Virus record (IMG/VR): IMGVR_UViG_3300029310_000030
Location: 1-35,576 of that record
Length of the DNA stretch: 35,576 nt
From: a virus
Reading direction: 5' to 3' (one strand)
Position numbers and translations under genes: made by a program. The notes beneath the pieces were generated by a model, which saw only the letters and a list, made by a program, of their open reading frames with translations, was not told where the DNA came from and made no database searches. Shown here piece by piece: positions 2,100-35,576 of the stretch; position 1 is the first letter of the stretch, and each line of letters opens with the position of its first letter.

Positions 2100-4463
2100 T
2101 TAATTCCCCCTTTCTGCCAGCGTGGCCAGATGGCCCAGCTGTGCATCAATAGAAGGTGCCAGTGCGCCCACCAGCGTTCCATCATCCAGCTTGATGACCG
2201 CATTGCCTGCCTGAGGGAGATACTGCTGGACGACGTTATACAGTGCATCCAGAGAAGTCTGCATTTTCTGCTGATAGGCCGTCAGGCGGCTGTTGGCCGG
2301 GCTTTCTCCGAAGGCATAGCCATCGGTGCGGAAATCGTACCCCGCCATGGAGCGCATATTTCCGTACCAGTAAGCGTCCTGGATGTCCTTATAGGAAAGC
2401 GTCGAGCTCTTGCTGTCAGTGCTTTCCTTTTCGCCGTTCTTACTGCCCAGCCATGCGGCCAGGCCGATACCGCCCGCCACAGCAGCCACGCCCAGGATGG
2501 CAGCCAGCACAGGGTTGGATGCCACAAGCGAGACGATATTGCCCAGACTGCCCATGATAGAGGTGGCCATGCTGGACACCCCGCTGGCAACGTTGGCCAA
2601 CTGGGCACCGGCCCCGCCGGATGCGCTCAAGCTGGACAGGATGGAGCCAAAGCTTTGCACTGCTGTCCCTGCTTCTGTCGCACTGGCGGCAATGCCGTCC
2701 GTAAAGAGGGACTGGATGGTAGCGAAGGCTGCTTTTACGCCGCCCCCGCTGTACGCGTCATTGATGACACCCAGCGCATCCGCCGCCCACTTGGAGATGA
2801 GTTCCCGCTGATCCTGCGAGACCTCACCCCAGATGAGCTTTACAAAATCCATGGCCAGGCTGTCCCAGCTGCCATTTTTGAGGTCAGTCAGAACGCTCTG
2901 GAACGTGCCCAAAATACCATTTGACCACTCGCTTTTGGCAGTGCTCAAATTTTTATCGATTTTGGACTGAATGGCGCTCACGCTCTGGTCGATCTCCTCG
3001 ACGGTCTTTTCGACCTTTGTCTGCACGCCATCCACATACTTGGTAATGGTCTTGTAATTCTTGGCCACACCGTCCACGATTTTAGTGCCGGATTCCGTCA
3101 CTGTCTTGGTGATATGTTCGGTGCCGTCATCGTACTTTTCGCGGACAGTCTGGATGGCCGTGGTGATGCCATCGGCCACACTTTCGCTTTTCTCAGTCAA
3201 AGCATCGATGACCTGGGCAGTTTTCTTAGCAGTGGTAGAGCTTTTCCCGGATCTTTTTGTGGATCCACCGGAAGAGCTGACAATGCTGCTCCCGCCGTTT
3301 CCGGCAGATTCCGCGGCTTCTTTCTGGCGTTCAGTCCAGCTTTTATTGCTTATGCCTTTTCCTGCAAGCGCTTCCTGTCTTCTGCGATTTCGATTGCTTT
3401 GATGGACTTGATCCGCATGGTACTCTTCATAGGTGTCGTACCCTGCATAAGCATCTTTCCCCAGTGCTTTGTTAAGCTTGTAGCTCCACTGATCTAAGAT
3501 ACTTATGGCATTTTTGGCCACCCTTTCAATGGCATTTCCTGCAATTCCCATTTCGGTCACAAGGCTTTTCGTAATGGGGTTTAAGTCTGCGATTGCTTTT
3601 CCAAGCCCGACCCATCCATCCGTTTTATACGCTTCCATGGCTGCAACGGTCATGTCATTCAGGTTGGAAATCACCTGACCAATGCCCTCGCTCAAATTCT
3701 CAGTCATAAGACCGGCCAGCTGATTTACATTGTCTTTGAGAGTAGAGATACGGCCATCCATGGTCTGGCTCTGCGTCTCCATGGCGTTATAGTAGCGCCC
3801 GCCCTCCTCACTGGCAGCGATAAGAGCTTCAGACAGCAGGTCATAGCTGACAGTCATGCTCTGGACTTCCTGCACCGTTTTGCCGGTGTAGTCAGCCAGA
3901 ACCTGATAAATGTTGATGCCGGCATTGGCGAATTGCTTGATATCGACAGCAGTAGCTTTTCCCACGTTGGCAATCTGCTGCAGATTGCCAGCCATACGAG
4001 ACAGCTCCACATTGCCGCCACCTGTAGCAGATACAGCGTCACCCAGTGCCATGATCACTTTGCGCGAGTATTCCGCATTTTCACCTGCACCTATCAAAAG
4101 CTGATTTGCCTGCGTCAAAGAAGAGACATTGAATGGGGTTTTGGCAGCATCCTCTTGGATAGCTGCCATTACCTTCTGTGCTTTTTCGGCGCTCCCAAGC
4201 ATATTCTCAAAGCCCGTGGAGTACCTTTCGATTTCGGCGTTGTATGCAATGCCCGTTTTTACAGCATTTGTTGCAAAATCCAGCATTTTGGAGGTAACTT
4301 TGGAAATCATGTTTCCCATGATTTGCCCTTTTGCTATGGCTCCAGCAAAAGAGTCCTGCACATCCTTGGCCTTATCATCTGTCTTGCTCAGACTTGCTTC
4401 AGCCTGACTGCTGTCAATGAAAATCGAGCCAAAAAGCCGGAAAATCTCAGTCCCGCTTGCCAC
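2100..4463 (-). CDS. Tail tape measure protein, 787 aa
   Basis: Long ORF downstream of the G/GT chaperones. It has a TP901-type TMP core-like segment (...TPFNVSSLTQANQLLIGAG...GNLQQIANVGKATAVDIKQFANAGINIY...) and Gly/Ala/Ser-rich and TM-like stretches. Confidence 0.9.
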   Translation of the reverse strand: MASGTEIFRLFGSIFIDSSQAEASLSKTDDKAKDVQDSFAGAIAKGQIMGNMISKVTSKMLDFATNAVKTGIAYNAEIERYSTGFENMLGSAEKAQKVMAAIQEDAAKTPFNVSSLTQANQLLIGAGENAEYSRKVIMALGDAVSATGGGNVELSRMAGNLQQIANVGKATAVDIKQFANAGINIYQVLADYTGKTVQEVQSMTVSYDLLSEALIAASEEGGRYYNAMETQSQTMDGRISTLKDNVNQLAGLMTENLSEGIGQVISNLNDMTVAAMEAYKTDGWVGLGKAIADLNPITKSLVTEMGIAGNAIERVAKNAISILDQWSYKLNKALGKDAYAGYDTYEEYHADQVHQSNRNRRRQEALAGKGISNKSWTERQKEAAESAGNGGSSIVSSSGGSTKRSGKSSTTAKKTAQVIDALTEKSESVADGITTAIQTVREKYDDGTEHITKTVTESGTKIVDGVAKNYKTITKYVDGVQTKVEKTVEEIDQSVSAIQSKIDKNLSTAKSEWSNGILGTFQSVLTDLKNGSWDSLAMDFVKLIWGEVSQDQRELISKWAADALGVINDAYSGGGVKAAFATIQSLFTDGIAASATEAGTAVQSFGSILSSLSASGGAGAQLANVASGVSSMATSIMGSLGNIVSLVASNPVLAAILGVAAVAGGIGLAAWLGSKNGEKESTDSKSSTLSYKDIQDAYWYGNMRSMAGYDFRTDGYAFGESPANSRLTAYQQKMQTSLDALYNVVQQYLPQAGNAVIKLDDGTLVGALAPSIDAQLGHLATLAERGN

Positions 4464-24635: not shown

Positions 24636-25238
24636 ATGAATGAATATGAAAAAAGAGTGGCAAAGGTTTTAGAGATGGCACGATTCAAAGCCGGTATCAG
24701 TCAGGAAAGACTTGCCAAGCGGATGGGCGTAAGTCGTCCCACCATTGCGGGCAAAGAGCAAGGAACATCCCCCGCCTCACTGGCAGATATCATCAGCTGG
24801 TGCGTGTCGTGCGGGGTTCCGGCCAAACGCTATACCGATGCCTGTGTCCATCCTGGTCTGCTGGAGTACCTGGAAGACGGCATCGGCACAGAAGAAAAGC
24901 GGCAGATCTTACACGGGCTGGTTGACGATATGTCCAGCTATGAGGTCGATGGATGGCTGTATCTCTACTATGGCGACCACGGCTCAGATCCACTGGGCGT
25001 GCTGACAGAGGTGCTGGCCAACTTGCACACTCCGCTGCGCGACCGTGTGACGATCGTAAACGCTATAATCGGGCATTATAAGATGGCGCAATCGACAGAC
25101 ACAGACCCGGACCCAAACGGGACGCAGCCGGTCATGCCGATTGTGCAGCAAGCCAGTCAGTGCGGTACTGAAGCTGCCCGCCGCGGTAGTGACGTTTACT
25201 CAGCACAGTTGGAGGTAGATAAAGATGGCAAGGGCTAA
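24636..25238 (+). CDS. XRE-family HTH protein with a C-terminal domain, about 200 aa (start trimmed to MNEYEK...)
   Basis: HTH segment ISQERLAKRMGVSRPTIAGKEQG. Its 3' end overlaps the integrase start. Confidence 0.6.
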   Translation: MNEYEKRVAKVLEMARFKAGISQERLAKRMGVSRPTIAGKEQGTSPASLADIISWCVSCGVPAKRYTDACVHPGLLEYLEDGIGTEEKRQILHGLVDDMSSYEVDGWLYLYYGDHGSDPLGVLTEVLANLHTPLRDRVTIVNAIIGHYKMAQSTDTDPDPNGTQPVMPIVQQASQCGTEAARRGSDVYSAQLEVDKDGKG

Positions 25239-26403
25239 AAAGGGAATCCGGCCAGACGGTCTGTATCAGTGCCGCCGGGTCATGCCGGATGGAAAAAAGA
25301 AGTCCTTTTACGGTCACAGCAAAACGGAAGCCGAGGGAAAGTATAAAGAAGCTCTGAAAAAGTGGGAAGAGGAACACCCACAAAAAGGTAAAAGCAACAC
25401 GGTAACTTACAGGCAGGCGGTTGCGGCCTACCATGACTACATCACCGGGCCTGCAAAGCCGGTGCGCCGCGGTACAATCACCTCATATCAAAAGCACCTG
25501 GGCCCCACCAGCGAGTACTTCGGGGATGCCTTGATGGAGGACATCGACGCTCAAAAGGTAAAGGAGTATCTGGACATCCTTGCCGCAGAGGGTAAAGCAA
25601 AAAAGACAGCCATCAACGCGCGATCAGTTATCAGCTGCGTTTTTGAGTATTGGTGCAACTACCTGCACGGCACTGGGAATCCGGTGCGGAATGCTCATAT
25701 CCCCAAAAAGATGCCGGTAACGGAGCGGCAGGAGCCCACAAAAGAGCAGCGGCAGCTGATTGAAGCTCACCCAGAGGGATGCGGTTTCTGGGCGGCACTC
25801 TTCGAGTATACTGGTATGCGCATGGGCGAGGCCAACGGCCTGCGCTGGAAAAACGTTGACTTTGCCGCCGGAAAGATCACGCCAGAGCAAGCTATGCCCT
25901 GGGATAAAAATCACCCCTACAAAGAAGAGCTGAAAACGCTCAAGGCCTACCGGTCAATCCCCATCCTCAACAAATTTCGGCCCATGCTGGAAGAGGCTGC
26001 AAAAGGCCACGATCCAGATGACTATGTCCTGTCGGGAGAGAAAGAACCCCTCAGCCAGTCCCAGTACGAGTGGCGCTGGGCGATTTACTGCCGGGGCCTG
26101 GGTCTGGCCGTCAAGCAGGAGAAGCACTCCAAAATCAAGGGCCAGCCAGGAAAAATCCGAACATACTACAAATGGAAAGCACTTGTCACGGCGCACCAGT
26201 TCCGGCACCTTTATGCGTCGAACCTCTTTTATGCTCAAGTGCCGGACAAGGTGGCGCAAAAGCTTTTGGGCCACGCAGACATCTCTACCACCCGCCGCAT
26301 TTATCAGCATCTGCGTGAGGATGAGGACATGAAATACACCGACATGCTCAACGCATATATCGACGGGCAGGATAAAATCCCAAGTGATAATGTTGGTAAA
26401 TGA
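25225..26403 (+). CDS. int: Tyrosine integrase, 392 aa
   Basis: Catalytic-type motifs TGMRMGEANGLRW, HQFRH and LLGHADISTTRRIY. Lies next to attP. Confidence 0.9.
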   Translation: MARAKKGIRPDGLYQCRRVMPDGKKKSFYGHSKTEAEGKYKEALKKWEEEHPQKGKSNTVTYRQAVAAYHDYITGPAKPVRRGTITSYQKHLGPTSEYFGDALMEDIDAQKVKEYLDILAAEGKAKKTAINARSVISCVFEYWCNYLHGTGNPVRNAHIPKKMPVTERQEPTKEQRQLIEAHPEGCGFWAALFEYTGMRMGEANGLRWKNVDFAAGKITPEQAMPWDKNHPYKEELKTLKAYRSIPILNKFRPMLEEAAKGHDPDDYVLSGEKEPLSQSQYEWRWAIYCRGLGLAVKQEKHSKIKGQPGKIRTYYKWKALVTAHQFRHLYASNLFYAQVPDKVAQKLLGHADISTTRRIYQHLREDEDMKYTDMLNAYIDGQDKIPSDNVGK

Positions 26404-27115: not shown

Positions 27116-27130
27116 AAGAGCACCCCCCCC

Positions 27131-31714: not shown

Positions 31715-32497
31715 TTATACCTCCCGGAGCCGGGTCAGCCCCTTTGTCTTGATGATTTTCGGGTAGTTGAGGGTGGTCACGTTGAGGTCTACGTTGCCAG
31801 AAATGCCCGGCACGCTGCCTTTGCTGGTGTGCTGGTGGGCGTTGTACTTGAAATCCACCTTGGGGGTCTTACCCGTGTAGTCAGCCAACCATACATCCCA
31901 TCGCCCGGCAAGCCTTGCCATGTCCAGATGGACGTTGGCGTAGCTCGTGTAGGTGTACAGCTGGGCGTAAAAACCCATTTTCTCCACCTGTTCCAGCGCG
32001 TAGGCGGTGAGGTTGGTGAGGTCGAGGGTGCTCATGGGTTTGAGCTTGTTTTCCTCCACGTCCACCGCGAGGGGCATGCTAAGCTCCTTGCCGTAGACCG
32101 CCTGCCGCACAAGAGCAAGCTCTGCATCGGCCATCGCTTCGCTGGTGGCGTAGGTGTAGTAGTACACGCCCACGTCCAGACCGGCAGCCCGGGCGTTGCG
32201 GTAGTTTGCTTCAAAGGCCGGGTCGATGTACAGGCCGTCTGCCCGCTTGGAGAACTTTTTGTTGGTGGACACCGTCTTGAGCATGGCTCCCTTGTAACCC
32301 GCCACCGCCACCTGTGCCCAGTCAATTTCGCCCTGATACCGGCTTACGTCAATGTACCGGTAGGGCGGCTCACCCGTCCACCCGGTCACGGTGTCCACAG
32401 TGGGCACGTCCGGTGCAGGGGCAGGTTTTTCCTTGTCGGCGCTGTCACCGGCAGCGTGGGAGAGAGCAGAGAAGATATCCCGCAGGAAGTCAAGCAT
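31715..32497 (-). CDS. GH25 muramidase endolysin, about 260 aa (start at MLDFL...)
   Basis: ...YIDVSRYQGEIDWAQV...GVYYYTYA...AVDVEE... are GH25 signatures. GAGGTGG RBS. Confidence 0.85.
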   Translation of the reverse strand: MLDFLRDIFSALSHAAGDSADKEKPAPAPDVPTVDTVTGWTGEPPYRYIDVSRYQGEIDWAQVAVAGYKGAMLKTVSTNKKFSKRADGLYIDPAFEANYRNARAAGLDVGVYYYTYATSEAMADAELALVRQAVYGKELSMPLAVDVEENKLKPMSTLDLTNLTAYALEQVEKMGFYAQLYTYTSYANVHLDMARLAGRWDVWLADYTGKTPKVDFKYNAHQHTSKGSVPGISGNVDLNVTTLNYPKIIKTKGLTRLREV

Positions 32498-32633
32498 CAC
32501 TTTCCACCTCATAAAATCCCTCCTCCGTCAGCTTTTTCATCACGGCATCCTTGTACCGGTCAGGCACGTTATCGATGGTAAAAGCGCCGTCAAAGCGGTG
32601 CAGTTTGATTTGTGTCACATAAAACAAAACCAT
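32490..32633 (-). CDS. XkdX/CD1375-like small protein, 47 aa (internal start of ORF 32490..32861)
   Basis: MVLFYVTQIKLHRFDGAFTIDNVPDRYKDAVMKKL... matches the small-protein pattern seen upstream of Firmicute phage lysis genes. GGAGGA RBS. Confidence 0.5.
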   Translation of the reverse strand: MVLFYVTQIKLHRFDGAFTIDNVPDRYKDAVMKKLTEEGFYEVESDA

Positions 32634-32643
32634 AACATCCTCC

Positions 32644-33015
32644 TTATTGTGCGGCCAACAGGTCGAGCATAGCCGCTTCCAGAGCAGCAAGGCGCTCTTC
32701 TGCGGTGGGCAGCTGTGCTTTTTCCTCTGCTTCCTTGCGGGCCTTTTCCTGTGCAGCCCGCTCTTCGGCGGTGTACAGCACATACCGCTGCACCTCCACC
32801 TCTTCGTCGTAGGCTTCCTGTGCTTCCACACCGGGCACATCCACCACCTTCCAGCGGTCACGGCCCCCGTTGGGGTAGGTCTTGTACTCGTAGTGACTGA
32901 CCTCTTCCACGCCCTCTACGGCATCGTGGTGGATGGTCTGGGTCTCGGGCTTGAGGCAGCCTTTCGTCAGGTCGGGGGTTTCGATGGGGTTGCCGTTGAT
33001 GTCAATGATTTTCAT
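32644..33015 (-). CDS. Hypothetical tail-fibre-associated protein, 123 aa
   Basis: ORF between the fibre genes and the XkdX-like gene. It has a C-terminal coiled-coil region ending ...ERLAALEAAMLDLLAAQ. Confidence 0.5.
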   Translation of the reverse strand: MKIIDINGNPIETPDLTKGCLKPETQTIHHDAVEGVEEVSHYEYKTYPNGGRDRWKVVDVPGVEAQEAYDEEVEVQRYVLYTAEERAAQEKARKEAEEKAQLPTAEERLAALEAAMLDLLAAQ

Positions 33016-33030
33016 TTGTACTCCTTTCTT

Positions 33031-33483
33031 TTATGCCACTCTGCGCCAGATGTACATGCAGTATGCCGGGGGTTGGACGGTAGTGCTATTGCCATAGATG
33101 GAGTTGTTAGTGGAGCGGACATTGTTAACATATATCGGGACATTGCCGCTACTAGACCCGTTTGTCAAAGTCCACCCATTAGCAAGACTTACGGAAAAAA
33201 GGCCTTTTACGGTTGGTTTGTCGCTTGAAAAAAGCATGCCGTTTAGCTGTCCATATATGCTCGGCAAACCTGCTTCTACCGTTGTACCAGCCGGATGCGT
33301 ATCGCTTGCACCCCAGATAGTGCAATCCTCAATGCGTTCCCATGTGCCGCCGTACAGCTCGGCAGGGCTGGTGGCGTTTTCGCTTGCGTAAGGTGTTCCC
33401 ACCGGGTGTGTCAGCAGGAACAGAGTGGAGATGAATTTTTTCGTAAAACCTGCGTTTCCAATGCTCATAGTACCATAAGCCAT
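33031..33483 (-). CDS. Receptor-binding/tail-fibre-tip-type protein, paralog 1, 150 aa
   Basis: ...HPVGTPYAS...LYGGTWERIED...VEAGLPSIYG...TVQPPAYCMYIWRRVA. Clear paralog of the next gene. Confidence 0.55.
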   Translation of the reverse strand: MAYGTMSIGNAGFTKKFISTLFLLTHPVGTPYASENATSPAELYGGTWERIEDCTIWGASDTHPAGTTVEAGLPSIYGQLNGMLFSSDKPTVKGLFSVSLANGWTLTNGSSSGNVPIYVNNVRSTNNSIYGNSTTVQPPAYCMYIWRRVA

Positions 33484-33497
33484 TGTAAGTCTCCTTT

Positions 33498-33922
33498 TCA
33501 GGAAACTCGTCTCCAGAAGTAGAAGTAGTAGCCAGAGGGTTGGACGGTATCGGATGCGCCGTAGATGGGGTTGGAACGGGAAGCATCAAAGCTAATTTTT
33601 CTCAAATAATGCTCCGTATACGTTCCGTCTTTATATCTGCCACCGGTTTCGGAGTTGATTGCGCTAAGTGCTTTTTTCCCCGCTGAAGAAACAAAAACCG
33701 AGTTGTCAAGAACACCGGTTATATTCGGCAGTCCTGCTTCTACCGTCTCCCCGCCTTCGTGCCCATCTCCGGCACCCATCGGCACTCTGTTCTGTGCGAC
33801 GAGTTCCCACACTGTGTTTTTATAGCGTGCAGCCGGGGATGTTTTTACGGTGGTGAAGACGATATCGCCAATACGGGGGATTGTACCCCCCCCCCCCCAA
33901 CAATAAATGAACCGTATGCCAT
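33498..33922 (-). pseudogene. Receptor-binding-type paralog 2, interrupted by a frameshift in a G13 tract (intact with G14 or G11)
   Basis: ATG at 33922 with an AAGGAGG RBS gives MAYGSFIV plus poly-Gly, then a stop after 25 codons. The frame with one extra G reads ...TIPRIGDIVFTTVKTSPAARYKNTVWELVAQNR... into ORF 33498..33812. Confidence 0.6.
33886..33898. repeat. Homopolymer: 13 C on the plus strand (G13 in the coding sense)
   Basis: Counted directly: 5 C at 33886-33890 plus 8 C at 33891-33898. Confidence 0.95.
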
Positions 33923-33933
33923 GTTGAGCCTCC

Positions 33934-34812
33934 TTATCTCACGATGTACCATGTAGCGTTGATGACCGCCGTAGGCACATCCTTTGCCCGCAGACGCAGG
34001 ATGCCTTGCAGGGTCTCGGTGTTGGCGAAGCAGGCATCTGCTGCCGGTGTGGTGTCGTCCGGAGCAACCACCACGTTCACGATGTCCTGCGCGGTCAGCT
34101 CTGCGATGGAGATGTCCAGCTTGTGCGGGAAGTCCGCCACAGAGGTGTCATCCACCCAGCCGGTCGTGGGGATGGTGAAGGTGTGCGGGGCGACAACTGC
34201 GGCTTTGCCTGCCAGTGCGTCACCGGTGGCCTTTGCATCGGCAGGGGCGTTCTCGGTGGTGAAGGTTTTGTCGGTGTTCGCTCGGGTGCCAGCCAGCGCT
34301 GCACTTGCAGCGGCTTCCTTAGCGCTCTTCTGGGCAGCGGATTCGCTGGCAGAGGAATTGGTTTCGGAGGTGGATGCAGCAGAAGCGCTGTCGGCAGCGG
34401 CAGTGGCAGAGGTGGCAGCAGCTTCTTTGCTTGCGTTGGCATCCGATGCAGAACCGGCCGCAGCGGATGCGGCAGCTGTTGCCGTGGCGGTGGAATTTGC
34501 CACCTCCTGCAAAGCGCCGACTTTAGCGTTGCCGATGTCAGTCAGTGCAGCATCTTTTGTCTGGGTAATGGCCGTGGTGGCCGTAGCTTGAGCTTGCTGG
34601 ACAGCGGCCACAGAGTCCGCTTTCTGCTGGTCGATGTTTGCCACAGCATCGGATGCTTTTTTCTCGCTGGCTGCCGCCGCATCTGCCTTCTGGGTGGCCG
34701 TGGCAGCGAACTGCTCCACATACTCGCCCATCTGGGCGATGTCTTCCCGGACTTCCACACCTTTTTTTGCGGTACGGATGCCCGAGATGACTTCCGGAAA
34801 AGTCTTTGTCAT
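33934..34812 (-). CDS. Tail fibre / baseplate upper protein (BppU-N-like) with an Ala/Ser-rich coiled-coil shaft, 292 aa
   Basis: N-terminal ...ISGIRTAKKGVEVREDIAQMGEYV... resembles BppU-type N-domains. Long A/S/T/E-rich repeat region. Confidence 0.55.
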   Translation of the reverse strand: MTKTFPEVISGIRTAKKGVEVREDIAQMGEYVEQFAATATQKADAAAASEKKASDAVANIDQQKADSVAAVQQAQATATTAITQTKDAALTDIGNAKVGALQEVANSTATATAAASAAAGSASDANASKEAAATSATAAADSASAASTSETNSSASESAAQKSAKEAAASAALAGTRANTDKTFTTENAPADAKATGDALAGKAAVVAPHTFTIPTTGWVDDTSVADFPHKLDISIAELTAQDIVNVVVAPDDTTPAADACFANTETLQGILRLRAKDVPTAVINATWYIVR

Positions 34813-35306
34813 AAACTGATCACTCCCGTAGGTACATCATAGATGGTGTCGGTTTCAAAATCAAAGGTATCCCAGAGCCAATCCGCACCCGCATCCGCGG
34901 TGACATTTCTTTTGTACGGATTGCAAGTGCCCTCTATGGTAAAGGCCATATCATGTCGGTTTTTCTCACTGGGGTCTACCCGCCAAAGGCCCTGCCAGTA
35001 CCAGGCACTGTCCTCATCAAAAACGCACCGAAGCCACTTGCCCTGTAAGGCATTTTCAAGGGCGCTTTGGATGGTCGTCCATTGCTTTTTCGGAGACTTA
35101 CAGATAAGCTCCAGCTTGATGGTGCGCTGCTTGTAGTGCACTTCCCCATCCAAAGCCCTGGACAGGTCTAGGATAAAGTCAGAGCCCGGGACATTGACAA
35201 GCATCGTCTCTGGCTCTGCACCGGATATCATAGGGCTGCCCACCTTCAGATAAAGGCCAAGGTCTTTGAGGGTATGGACATTTCCGATCTGTGCACCCAT
35301 CAGCAT
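34809..35306 (-). CDS. Distal tail protein (Dit-like) N-domain protein, 165 aa
   Basis: ...HTLKDLGLYLKVGSPMISGAEPETMLVNVPGSDFILDLS...YKQRTIKLELIC...WYWQGLWRV...CNPYKR matches the siphovirus tail-component (Dit) pattern. Confidence 0.55.
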   Translation of the reverse strand: MLMGAQIGNVHTLKDLGLYLKVGSPMISGAEPETMLVNVPGSDFILDLSRALDGEVHYKQRTIKLELICKSPKKQWTTIQSALENALQGKWLRCVFDEDSAWYWQGLWRVDPSEKNRHDMAFTIEGTCNPYKRNVTADAGADWLWDTFDFETDTIYDVPTGVISL

Positions 35307-35548
35307 TTGAGCTCACCTCCGCTCTGGATCACGGCCAACTGCTCCGGGGTCAGAGGGCTGTATACCAGCTTTTCTCCGTCCCACACATAGTGCGAGCCGC
35401 CATCCTCCCAGTCCTCCGGGAACTCATCGAAGACCATGCAGTTGTCTGGGAGAGGGTTCGGGATTACTTCTTCAACGCCCCATCCGCCACTGTAAATGCG
35501 GCCATCGGAGCACACCTTGCACATAAATTTACAGCCGGGTACTTTCAT
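35300..35548 (-). CDS. Hypothetical protein, 82 aa (between the Tal-like and Dit-like genes; its start lies inside the terminal repeat)
   Basis: GAGGTGAAGGA RBS. The start at 35548 corresponds to position 71, i.e. 12 nt after the Tal-like stop at 84. Confidence 0.5.
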   Translation of the reverse strand: MKVPGCKFMCKVCSDGRIYSGGWGVEEVIPNPLPDNCMVFDEFPEDWEDGGSHYVWDGEKLVYSPLTPEQLAVIQSGGELKC

Positions 35549-35576
35549 CTGTCCTTCACCTCACATAAAACCGTAT
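35478..35576. repeat. Terminal direct repeat, right copy (identical to 1-99)
   Basis: Exact identity with 1-99. Confidence 0.95.

Follow-up and report, generated by a model that had tools for sequence, protein, structure and literature searches.

What does a run of 13 consecutive G residues do at the ninth codon of a phage tail gene that it leaves out of frame? The question is raised by the IMG/VR virus record IMGVR_UViG_3300029310_000030, of which the whole 35,576 nucleotides (nt) are analyzed here and referred to as the window. The gene concerned, termed the polyG gene, lies on the minus strand at positions 33498 to 33922 and, once its frame is restored, encodes a putative tail-fibre-tip protein. 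When the reading frames, other assemblies of the same phage, relatives, and signatures of selection are considered together, it appears probable that the tract is a contingency locus driven by slippage, providing a heritable and reversible ON/OFF switch of this protein. A length that opens the full frame is called ON here and any other OFF, and the 13 G of the window would correspond to OFF.

The G tract and its reading frames

The start of the gene is readily recognized. A strong ribosome-binding site (RBS), AAGGAGG (33935-33929), which is kept in all relatives of the closest group (clade A, below), stands 6 nt 5' of the ATG (33922-33920). This is followed on the minus strand by GCA TAC GGT TCA TTT ATT GTT, the 13 G (33898-33886; 13 C on the plus strand), and TACAATCCCCCG. 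The N terminus before the tract is MAYGSFIV, and the proposed slippage site occupies codons 9 to 13. As it stands, the open reading frame (ORF; 33845-33922) has 25 codons, encodes MAYGSFIVGGGGVQSPVLAISSSPP, and ends with a TAA at 33847-33845. With 11, 14, or 17 G, the frame absorbs the ORF at 33498-33812 and yields 140, 141, or 142 amino acids (aa) with the C terminus YYFYFWRRVS, whereas the remaining lengths between 9 and 16 G all give 24 to 34 aa. In alleles of this type, only lengths of 3n+2 (8, 11, 14) join the ATG to the gene body of 130 codons, and addition of one G or removal of two restores the window copy. The original prediction had described this RBS, start, N terminus, tract of exactly 13 G, and stop after 25 codons, all of which direct reading and a script confirm. 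It was also right that 14 or 11 G would join the frame to the downstream ORF, but its protein size of ~142 aa needs correcting, to 141 aa at 14 G and 140 aa at 11 G.

The tract is the longest homopolymer of the window. The second-longest G/C run is C8 at 27123-27130, all remaining G/C runs are of 6 or fewer, and dinucleotide-preserving shuffles give an expectation of 0.01 G runs of 11 or more per window. Two hallmarks of contingency loci are thereby present: a mononucleotide repeat of about 7 or more within an ORF (G13 here, G7 to G15 in relatives) and a toggling of the frame by its length, which is found in the window and in every relative. The run at 27123-27130 (G8 on the minus strand) is intergenic, in the order TAA of a 133-aa ORF, G8, TGCTCTT, and ATG of a 167-aa DUF7841 gene, and it is probably a spacer or a Shine-Dalgarno element rich in G. 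Assembly L002 of the same phage has G8 there as well, so that this run lacks polymorphism, in contrast to the G13 tract.

Public annotations of the polyG gene are inconsistent because of the tract. An in-frame ATG lies upstream (33923-33952, minus strand; MVHREIRRLN-MAYG...), within the 3' end of the preceding 292-aa gene and without an RBS, and the Joint Genome Institute (JGI) gene caller begins a G11 allele there (P0123, 150 aa). Database entries with this upstream MVHREIRRLN, with MGAGDGH..., or with a TTG start read as MGGGG... are the responses of gene callers to OFF or ambiguous tracts.

Tract length varies among near-identical genomes

Exact-sequence look-ups and contig retrieval provided nine further assemblies of this phage, making ten independent ones with the window, from at least eight samples. 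Their flanks are at least 99.9% identical, and yet three lengths occur: G11 in three (L001, L002, and L263; ON, 140 aa), G12 in six (L258 to L262 and L264; OFF), and G13 in the window as the sole case (OFF). The 140-aa G11 allele is also represented by protein P0001, from genomes identical to the window. Over 13.4 kb shared with L001 and 10.6 kb shared with L002, the sole difference from the window is a 2-nt gap at the tract; the other contigs of this phage carry 0 to 2 substitutions per ~4 kb of flank. Apart from the G tract, no homopolymer differs between the compared assemblies. Three BioSamples with consecutive numbers (SAMN03418253, -254, and -255; ERZ28618722, ERZ28624925, and ERZ28628306) have lengths of 11, 12, and 12, and other sources of the assemblies include ERZ1745275, ERZ1745232, ERZ27296273, ERZ27296274, and JGI 3300045988. 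As the flanks are near identical while the length varies, the tract stands out as the single hot spot of a genome that is clonal elsewhere. Length polymorphism with both ON and OFF states among near-identical genomes, a third hallmark of contingency loci, is thus present in this phage.

The tract across relatives

The comparison was extended to relatives with a hidden Markov model census covering 243 sequences, 1.36 Mb, and 368 homolog matches. In the closest group, clade A (MAYG[SA]FIV-Gn-[TA]IPRIGD), all sampled members have a pure G run of 7 to 15 nt at the same codon position, and in the next closest, clade B (MAVGNFNSA-Gn or MAFGSFIL-Gn), all sampled members have one of 7 to 13 nt. Among ~345 matches to more distant homologs of the Gp10_C family (Pfam PF21939), no run of 6 or more is found at the tract position. 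G/C runs of 7 or more number 42 in the entire 1.36 Mb, and about half of them are at the tract site. The exceptions to a pure long run are one interrupted tract (P0007, VCGGGG) and one contracted to G7 (L256). The polyG gene is kept in at least 53 protein clusters at 90% identity.

Both states recur throughout clade A. DNA-verified ON alleles have G7, G9, G11, G12 (followed by ACA), G13 (followed by CA), and G15, and DNA-verified OFF alleles have G10, G11, G12, G13, and G14, with the state of a given length set by the flanking codon type. Close pairs differ in the same manner as the ten assemblies: L164 has G9 (ON) and L166 has G11 (OFF) with downstream sequence 99.8% identical, L243 has G13 and L244 has G11, and four samples of the P0086 lineage have G10, G11, G11, and G11. 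Within ten protein lineages, alleles with three, four, or five Gly and/or truncated alleles occur. In a clade-A sample drawn independently of frame (n = 9, the window and eight loci from tblastn-based scans), four are ON and five OFF. The cluster representatives divide into 41 ON and 12 OFF, a ratio unsuitable as a frequency estimate because representatives lean toward the longest, and hence ON, member, as is seen in the cluster of the window itself. Tract length in relatives is accordingly neither uniformly 13 G nor uniformly intact, the two outcomes that the original prediction had named as contrary to a phase switch; both are absent from the assemblies. With G11, G12, and G13 in one phage, G7 to G15 with ON and OFF alleles in other lineages, and purifying selection on the gene (below), the switch that it proposed gains support.

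The related phages have more G/C tracts in paralogs and in neighboring tail genes, which provides supporting context. Paralogs upstream of the polyG gene in L007, L008, L011, L070, and L257 carry G8 to G12 at the same 5' position. Clade B has a second tract, a poly-C near codon 23 of a 184-aa gene located ~1.3 kb downstream of the polyG gene, with C11 in L243 and L244 (4327-4337), L007 (3918-3928), and L009 (3899-3909) and C13 in L257 (1645-1657). Its length is thus 11 or 13, the gene looks broken in L257, and the tract looks hypermutable. An unrelated 71-kb viral contig (L056; IMGVR_UViG_2834101283_000005) has four tracts of G10 to G11 inside tandem fibre genes of the Gp10_C type (940-949, 1622-1632, 2476-2485, and 3138-3148), three of them in frame and the one at 1622-1632 splitting its gene over two frames. 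These tracts sit internally in their genes, and polyG gating of the Gp10_C-type family seems to have had more than one origin, with the position differing.

The clade-B relatives (L257 at 740-1159, which is logan SRR13336868_123541, and L007 to L011, L167, L168, L239, L243, and L244) are TAG-recoded phages. Direct reading of its DNA shows that protein P0046 needs three in-frame TAGs (aa 14, 97, and 135) to be read as sense, and its neighbor genes also contain in-frame TAGs, with none ending in TAG. The source gives the TAGs of P0046 as Gln; two of the three align with Trp in homologs, one of these being near invariant (YMWRRAS, VAKW...).

Selection on the tract and on the gene

Codon usage provides a separate line of evidence. 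GGG makes up 11.5% of Gly codons in the late genes of this phage, so that four successive GGG codons have a probability of 1.8e-4, and the four other Gly-Gly-Gly peptides of the phage use mixtures of GGC and GGT, for example GGCGGCGGC. Synonymous sites adjacent to the tract differ among lineages (GGT/GGC/GGA, TCA/GCA/TCG, and CGT/CGC) while the run itself stays pure, and the flanking codons GTG, GGG-ACA, and GGG-GCA lengthen it. Across the conserved blocks of 12 lineages, the median ratio of nonsynonymous to synonymous substitution rates (dN/dS) is 0.20, with dS up to 0.53, and it is the same in pairs in which both alleles are OFF. Every OFF allele is a change of 1 or 2 nt away from a full ORF of 140 to 152 aa, with no second lesion. 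The fourth hallmark of contingency loci, a maintained repeat in a functional gene, is thus found in codon usage and in dN/dS. Judged by these sequence signatures, namely codon bias, a dN/dS of 0.20, and restoration in a single step, the polyG gene has kept its function over evolutionary time, OFF is a passing state, and the unstable tract persists even though it is costly.

The encoded protein and its paralog

The restored polyG protein and the adjacent 150-aa protein, which has no tract (33031-33483, minus strand), are collinear and 38% identical. As the original prediction had noticed, the two share the MAYG start, VEAGLP(N/S)I.G, and the ending TVQP..Y...WRRV(S/A). The polyG protein consists of a conserved N-terminal block of ~69 aa, a hypervariable center, and a conserved C-terminal block of ~30 aa, ...IYGASDTVQPSGYYFYFWRRVS. 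Between lineages, the center (residues ~70 to 110, approximately 33588-33712 of the window) is essentially unalignable, and both ends are more than 90% conserved. Such a center between conserved ends suggests that the loops presumed to contact the receptor are exchanged in a cassette-like manner.

Assignment to a tail tip draws on several comparisons. The paralog, named "baseplate protein" by NCBI, matches Pfam PF21939 Gp10_C at 35.9 bits, above the cutoff of 27 bits, and clade-B homologs have precomputed matches to the same family. The family profile finds LtfA of phage DT57C (8hqz_d, residues 684 to 778) with an E value of 8e-5 and the C-terminal domain of T4 gp10 with E values of 0.08 to 0.45. 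The motifs IG..Y, W.L, EAGLPNITG, and IYG.S.TVQP are held in common with this T4 domain and with LtfA (PDB 8hqz), whereas the proteins considered here are stand-alone, at 140 to 150 aa, and not domains of large baseplate or fibre proteins. As the matching part of LtfA is unresolved in the structure (PMC10713586), no structural or functional detail transfers from it. The polyG gene also follows a fibre gene, with PHROG tail-fibre matches nearby. From the Gp10_C and lateral-tail-fibre homology, the hypervariable center, and the gene position, we infer that the polyG protein could be a receptor-binding tip.

Weighing the evidence

Several observations weigh against a phase-variable tail tip, and the main weakness is the share of ON alleles. 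At ~30 to 45% (3 of the 10 assemblies of this phage and 4 of the 9 clade-A copies sampled independently of frame, the window included in both), it is near the 33% expected of random lengths, which fits drift of an unselected prophage tract but fits noise as well. In addition, the tract lengths of the ten assemblies were read from consensus assemblies and not from reads, long G homopolymers are error prone in Illumina library amplification by polymerase chain reaction and in low-coverage assemblies, so that single length calls may be off, and some contigs have 2 to 5x coverage (4.4x for L260 and 2.4x for L253). With regard to the protein, the restored polyG sequence scores 16.2 bits against Gp10_C (E = 0.02), below the cutoff. 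Its AlphaFold monomer is mediocre (predicted local distance difference test [pLDDT] of 68.7, predicted template modeling score [pTM] of 0.40), and a Foldseek search of this model against the PDB gave nothing at an E value of 0.001 or lower, the top matches being immunoglobulin-like noise. The Foldseek result is uninformative because the monomer model is too poor for a fibre domain that is probably trimeric.

Of the alternatives, the one that survives best, although we regard it as unlikely, is a leaky rheostat, in which slippage of RNA polymerase or ribosomal -1/+1 frameshifting yields protein from OFF alleles and tract length tunes dosage. Transcriptional slippage on long homopolymers is established, G GGG GGG is formally a slippery heptamer, and the 13-G allele would regain the frame through a slip of -1; moreover, OFF alleles dominate many samples, which would be tolerated more easily if expression were leaky. 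Against this, no stimulatory RNA structure follows the tract (folding of the next 86 nt does not exceed that of shuffled sequences, z = 0.16). A single programmed shift could not serve all OFF alleles, which are found in either wrong frame (G12 and G13), and identical genomes carry ON alleles, so the out-of-frame arrangement is not the conserved state. On these three grounds, a programmed ribosomal frameshift site was rejected. Leaky slippage may well add to a switch at the DNA level.

Slightly less probable again is an artefact of sequencing or assembly, with one true intact length and the 12- and 13-G calls as homopolymer errors. Short-read chemistry struggles with G runs of 11 or more, 11, 12, and 13 are adjacent values, and the low coverage of L260 and L253 would favor such errors. 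However, OFF lengths are reproduced between independent samples and between assemblers (six assemblies with G12; likewise, G11 in three contigs of the P0086 lineage), in-frame differences of 3 nt (Gly3, Gly4, Gly5) are common among close lineages, and every other homopolymer agrees between assemblies. Nor can error account for conservation of pure G against codon bias over dS values of up to 0.5.

It is also conceivable, but quite improbable, that selection favors a flexible poly-Gly linker, to which the homopolymer and its instability are incidental. The N-terminal segment that holds the Gly run is indeed predicted to be disordered, and three to five Gly are conserved there. Such a linker could, however, be encoded by the preferred GGC and GGT codons, as it is elsewhere in the phage, and a synonymous interruption would remove the cost of frequent OFF alleles; the lineages nevertheless all have pure G there, with P0007 as the sole interrupted case, and flanking codons lengthen the run. 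The linker reading was therefore rejected on codon usage. Finally, a decaying pseudogene, made dispensable by the tract-less paralog that adjoins it and with the frameshift of the window copy as the first step of loss, can hardly be entertained and was rejected on dN/dS, which is 0.20 even in OFF/OFF pairs, with an intact copy present in identical genomes, OFF alleles free of second lesions and 1 to 2 nt from the full ORF, and the gene kept across its 53 or more clusters.

A proposed switch mechanism

The contingency-locus reading can be placed into the context of virion assembly. Slipped-strand mispairing would add or remove G residues as the prophage or the lytic genome replicates; 3n+2 lengths would then give the full gene body, and any other length would end translation at 24 to 34 codons. 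The tract would encode a short poly-Gly stretch within residues 1 to 11, which are predicted to be disordered (pLDDT below 50), and three, four, or five Gly may be tolerated for that reason. The product would be a small Gp10_C-like tip protein that docks on the conserved C-terminal domain of the 292-aa protein, either beside or in competition with the paralog, whose expression would be indifferent to the switch. Phage populations could then consist of virions with and without the tip protein, a form of bet-hedging on host recognition.

A mobile tail-tip cassette

The proposed docking partner points to a larger unit. The 292-aa fibre or adapter protein (33934-34812, minus strand), with an Ala/Ser-rich shaft and PHROG tail-fibre matches, has a C-terminal stretch of ~105 to 119 residues (~33937-34293) that is 90 to 97% identical in relatives in which the upstream protein otherwise differs (220 or 150 aa). 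The boundary of cassette recombination thus falls within this gene. Relatives that share the C-terminal domain (L245, L248, L254, and L256) carry tails of the siphovirus type or of the myovirus type (Sheath_initiator, Baseplate_J, Mu gp48). At the other end, a conserved 123-aa protein (32644-33015, minus strand), the last member on the structural side before the lysis genes, is 92 to 96% identical in relatives; searches of Pfam and PHROG gave no match to it. Because the C-terminal domain and the 123-aa protein are conserved across differing tails, the mobile unit can be described as the adapter C-terminal domain, the polyG gene, the paralog, and the 123-aa protein. It is likely, going by this pattern of conservation, that the C-terminal domain is the docking platform of the polyG protein.

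A broader proposal may be formulated, which in our judgement is evenly balanced between right and wrong. An uncultured family of temperate gut phages would share this conserved mobile cassette between siphovirus- and myovirus-type tails and would have kept its 5' poly-G for a long time (dS to 0.5) as a phase switch dedicated to host recognition. In the TAG-recoded relatives, two to four tracts would allow combinatorial tip states.

Phage genome, host, and tail operon

The window begins and ends with an exact 99-bp direct repeat (1-99 and 35478-35576), and this terminal identity indicates that a phage genome of 35,477 bp was assembled as a circle. The phage is temperate, uncultured, and from the human gut; an integrase is encoded at 25225-26403, and its homolog in L002 matches Pfam Phage_integrase. 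The late operon, on the minus strand, comprises terminase, portal, protease, and capsid genes, followed by the tape measure protein (2100-4463) and a Prophage_tail protein (84-2096), and its tail part spans the circular junction from the latter gene to those of an 82-aa protein and a Dit-like protein (35548-34809). The Dit-like distal tail protein (165 aa; 34809-35306, minus strand) is assigned from its match to phrog_33, "distal tail protein Dit" (E = 2.4e-7), and it provides the tail-tip context. Beyond it come the 292-aa fibre-like gene, the polyG gene, the 150-aa paralog, and the genes of the 123-aa protein, a 47-aa protein, and a GH25 endolysin (31715-32512, minus strand; Pfam Glyco_hydro_25, E = 1.2e-26), which marks the downstream edge of the tail-tip module. 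The small ORFs by the endolysin gene are probably holins.

The nearest TerL sequences among cultured phages, at 57%, are those of Butyrivibrio phages, and because of these matches the host is probably a member of the gut Clostridia. A scan of GTDB genomes for prophage copies found no close relative, just distant homologs (43% or less) in assorted metagenome-assembled genomes. Likewise, GenBank phages (INPHARED) queried with the module DNA included no close relative, with weak matches to Faecalibacterium phage FP_Lugh and to fecal contigs.

Relation to known phase-variable systems

The mechanism proposed here is already known. The original prediction had called such a tract rare in phage tail genes, which is fair, but there is a direct precedent in the Campylobacter Fletchervirus phages, described as having polyG tracts in receptor-binding-protein genes with phase-variable expression (Sorensen et al., Cell Rep 2021, 35:109214, as cited in PMC10579305 and PMC12823448). 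As far as these descriptions go, the likeness lies in a G homopolymer in a host-recognition gene (putatively so here), with one of several receptor-binding proteins toggled and phenotypically mixed populations in the Fletchervirus case. It is drawn from the descriptions and not from protein homology, and the present case is reconstructed from assemblies. By the same descriptions, the Fletchervirus phages differ in being virulent myoviruses whose Gram-negative host is itself phase-variable through polyG, whereas the phages here are temperate gut phages with a probable Clostridia host, and the tract starts at codon 9 in the gene of a small Gp10_C-like protein (140 aa), within a cassette that crosses tail types. 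Sorensen and colleagues are also said to have identified such tracts bioinformatically in numerous further genera of phages.

Other comparisons place the tract between phage and bacterial systems. Among coliphages, in which simple sequence repeats (SSRs) of 6 or more bases are widespread, T2 agt and T4 rIIA are contingency loci in which polymerase slippage causes a reversible frameshift, read as bet-hedging, and genes of infection and of tail fibres are depleted of SSRs (0.77x; Gomez, Barrick and Waters, 2025 preprint, bioRxiv 10.1101/2025.10.21.683753). The polyG gene resembles those loci as an SSR of a phage with this kind of frameshift, but those repeats are short (6 or more bases, 9 in T2 agt) and lie in such genes as agt and rIIA, in contrast to 11 to 13 G here (7 to 15 in the family) in a putative tail-fibre-tip gene. 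With the contingency loci of bacterial surface genes in Campylobacter, Neisseria, Haemophilus, and Bordetella (PMC9311878, PMC1891110), it has in common a 5' homopolymer, an ON state at one length class modulo 3, and polymorphism among near-identical genomes; being phage borne, however, it would alter the composition of the virion rather than the cell surface. The apparent purpose, alternative host-recognition proteins in one population, is also that described for the G segment of Mu, the C segment of P1, and the retroelement of Bordetella phage BPP-1 (as cited in PMC10579305 and PMC12823448). Unlike the site-specific invertase of Mu and P1 and the reverse-transcriptase mutagenesis of BPP-1, the mechanism proposed here needs no dedicated enzyme. 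A literature search turned up no account of tracts of this kind in temperate phages of the gut or in tip proteins of the Gp10_C type. What is new is the case of a gut temperate phage, with unusually good support from natural populations and conservation across a family.

Implications

If real, the switch would have consequences for how such phages are read from genomes. Because gene callers report the affected genes as truncated, with spurious TTG or ATG starts, or as "hypothetical," inference of host range from genomes would then be affected. Public assemblies already show the same phage in the ON state in certain samples and in the OFF state elsewhere, which makes a systematic survey feasible, and tract length in reads offers a simple marker of phage sub-populations over time within a person.

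If the broader proposal of a family-wide cassette is correct, natural populations would provide evidence, for the first time, that tail proteins commonly undergo phage-encoded phase variation in the gut virome. It would also extend phase variation to phages of probably Gram-positive hosts that are not known for polyG phase variation. If the tract is a switch, populations of these gut phages would be built-in mixtures of virions with different tail tips, which would bear on models of phage-host dynamics in the gut and on the behavior of such phages when they are used or engineered.

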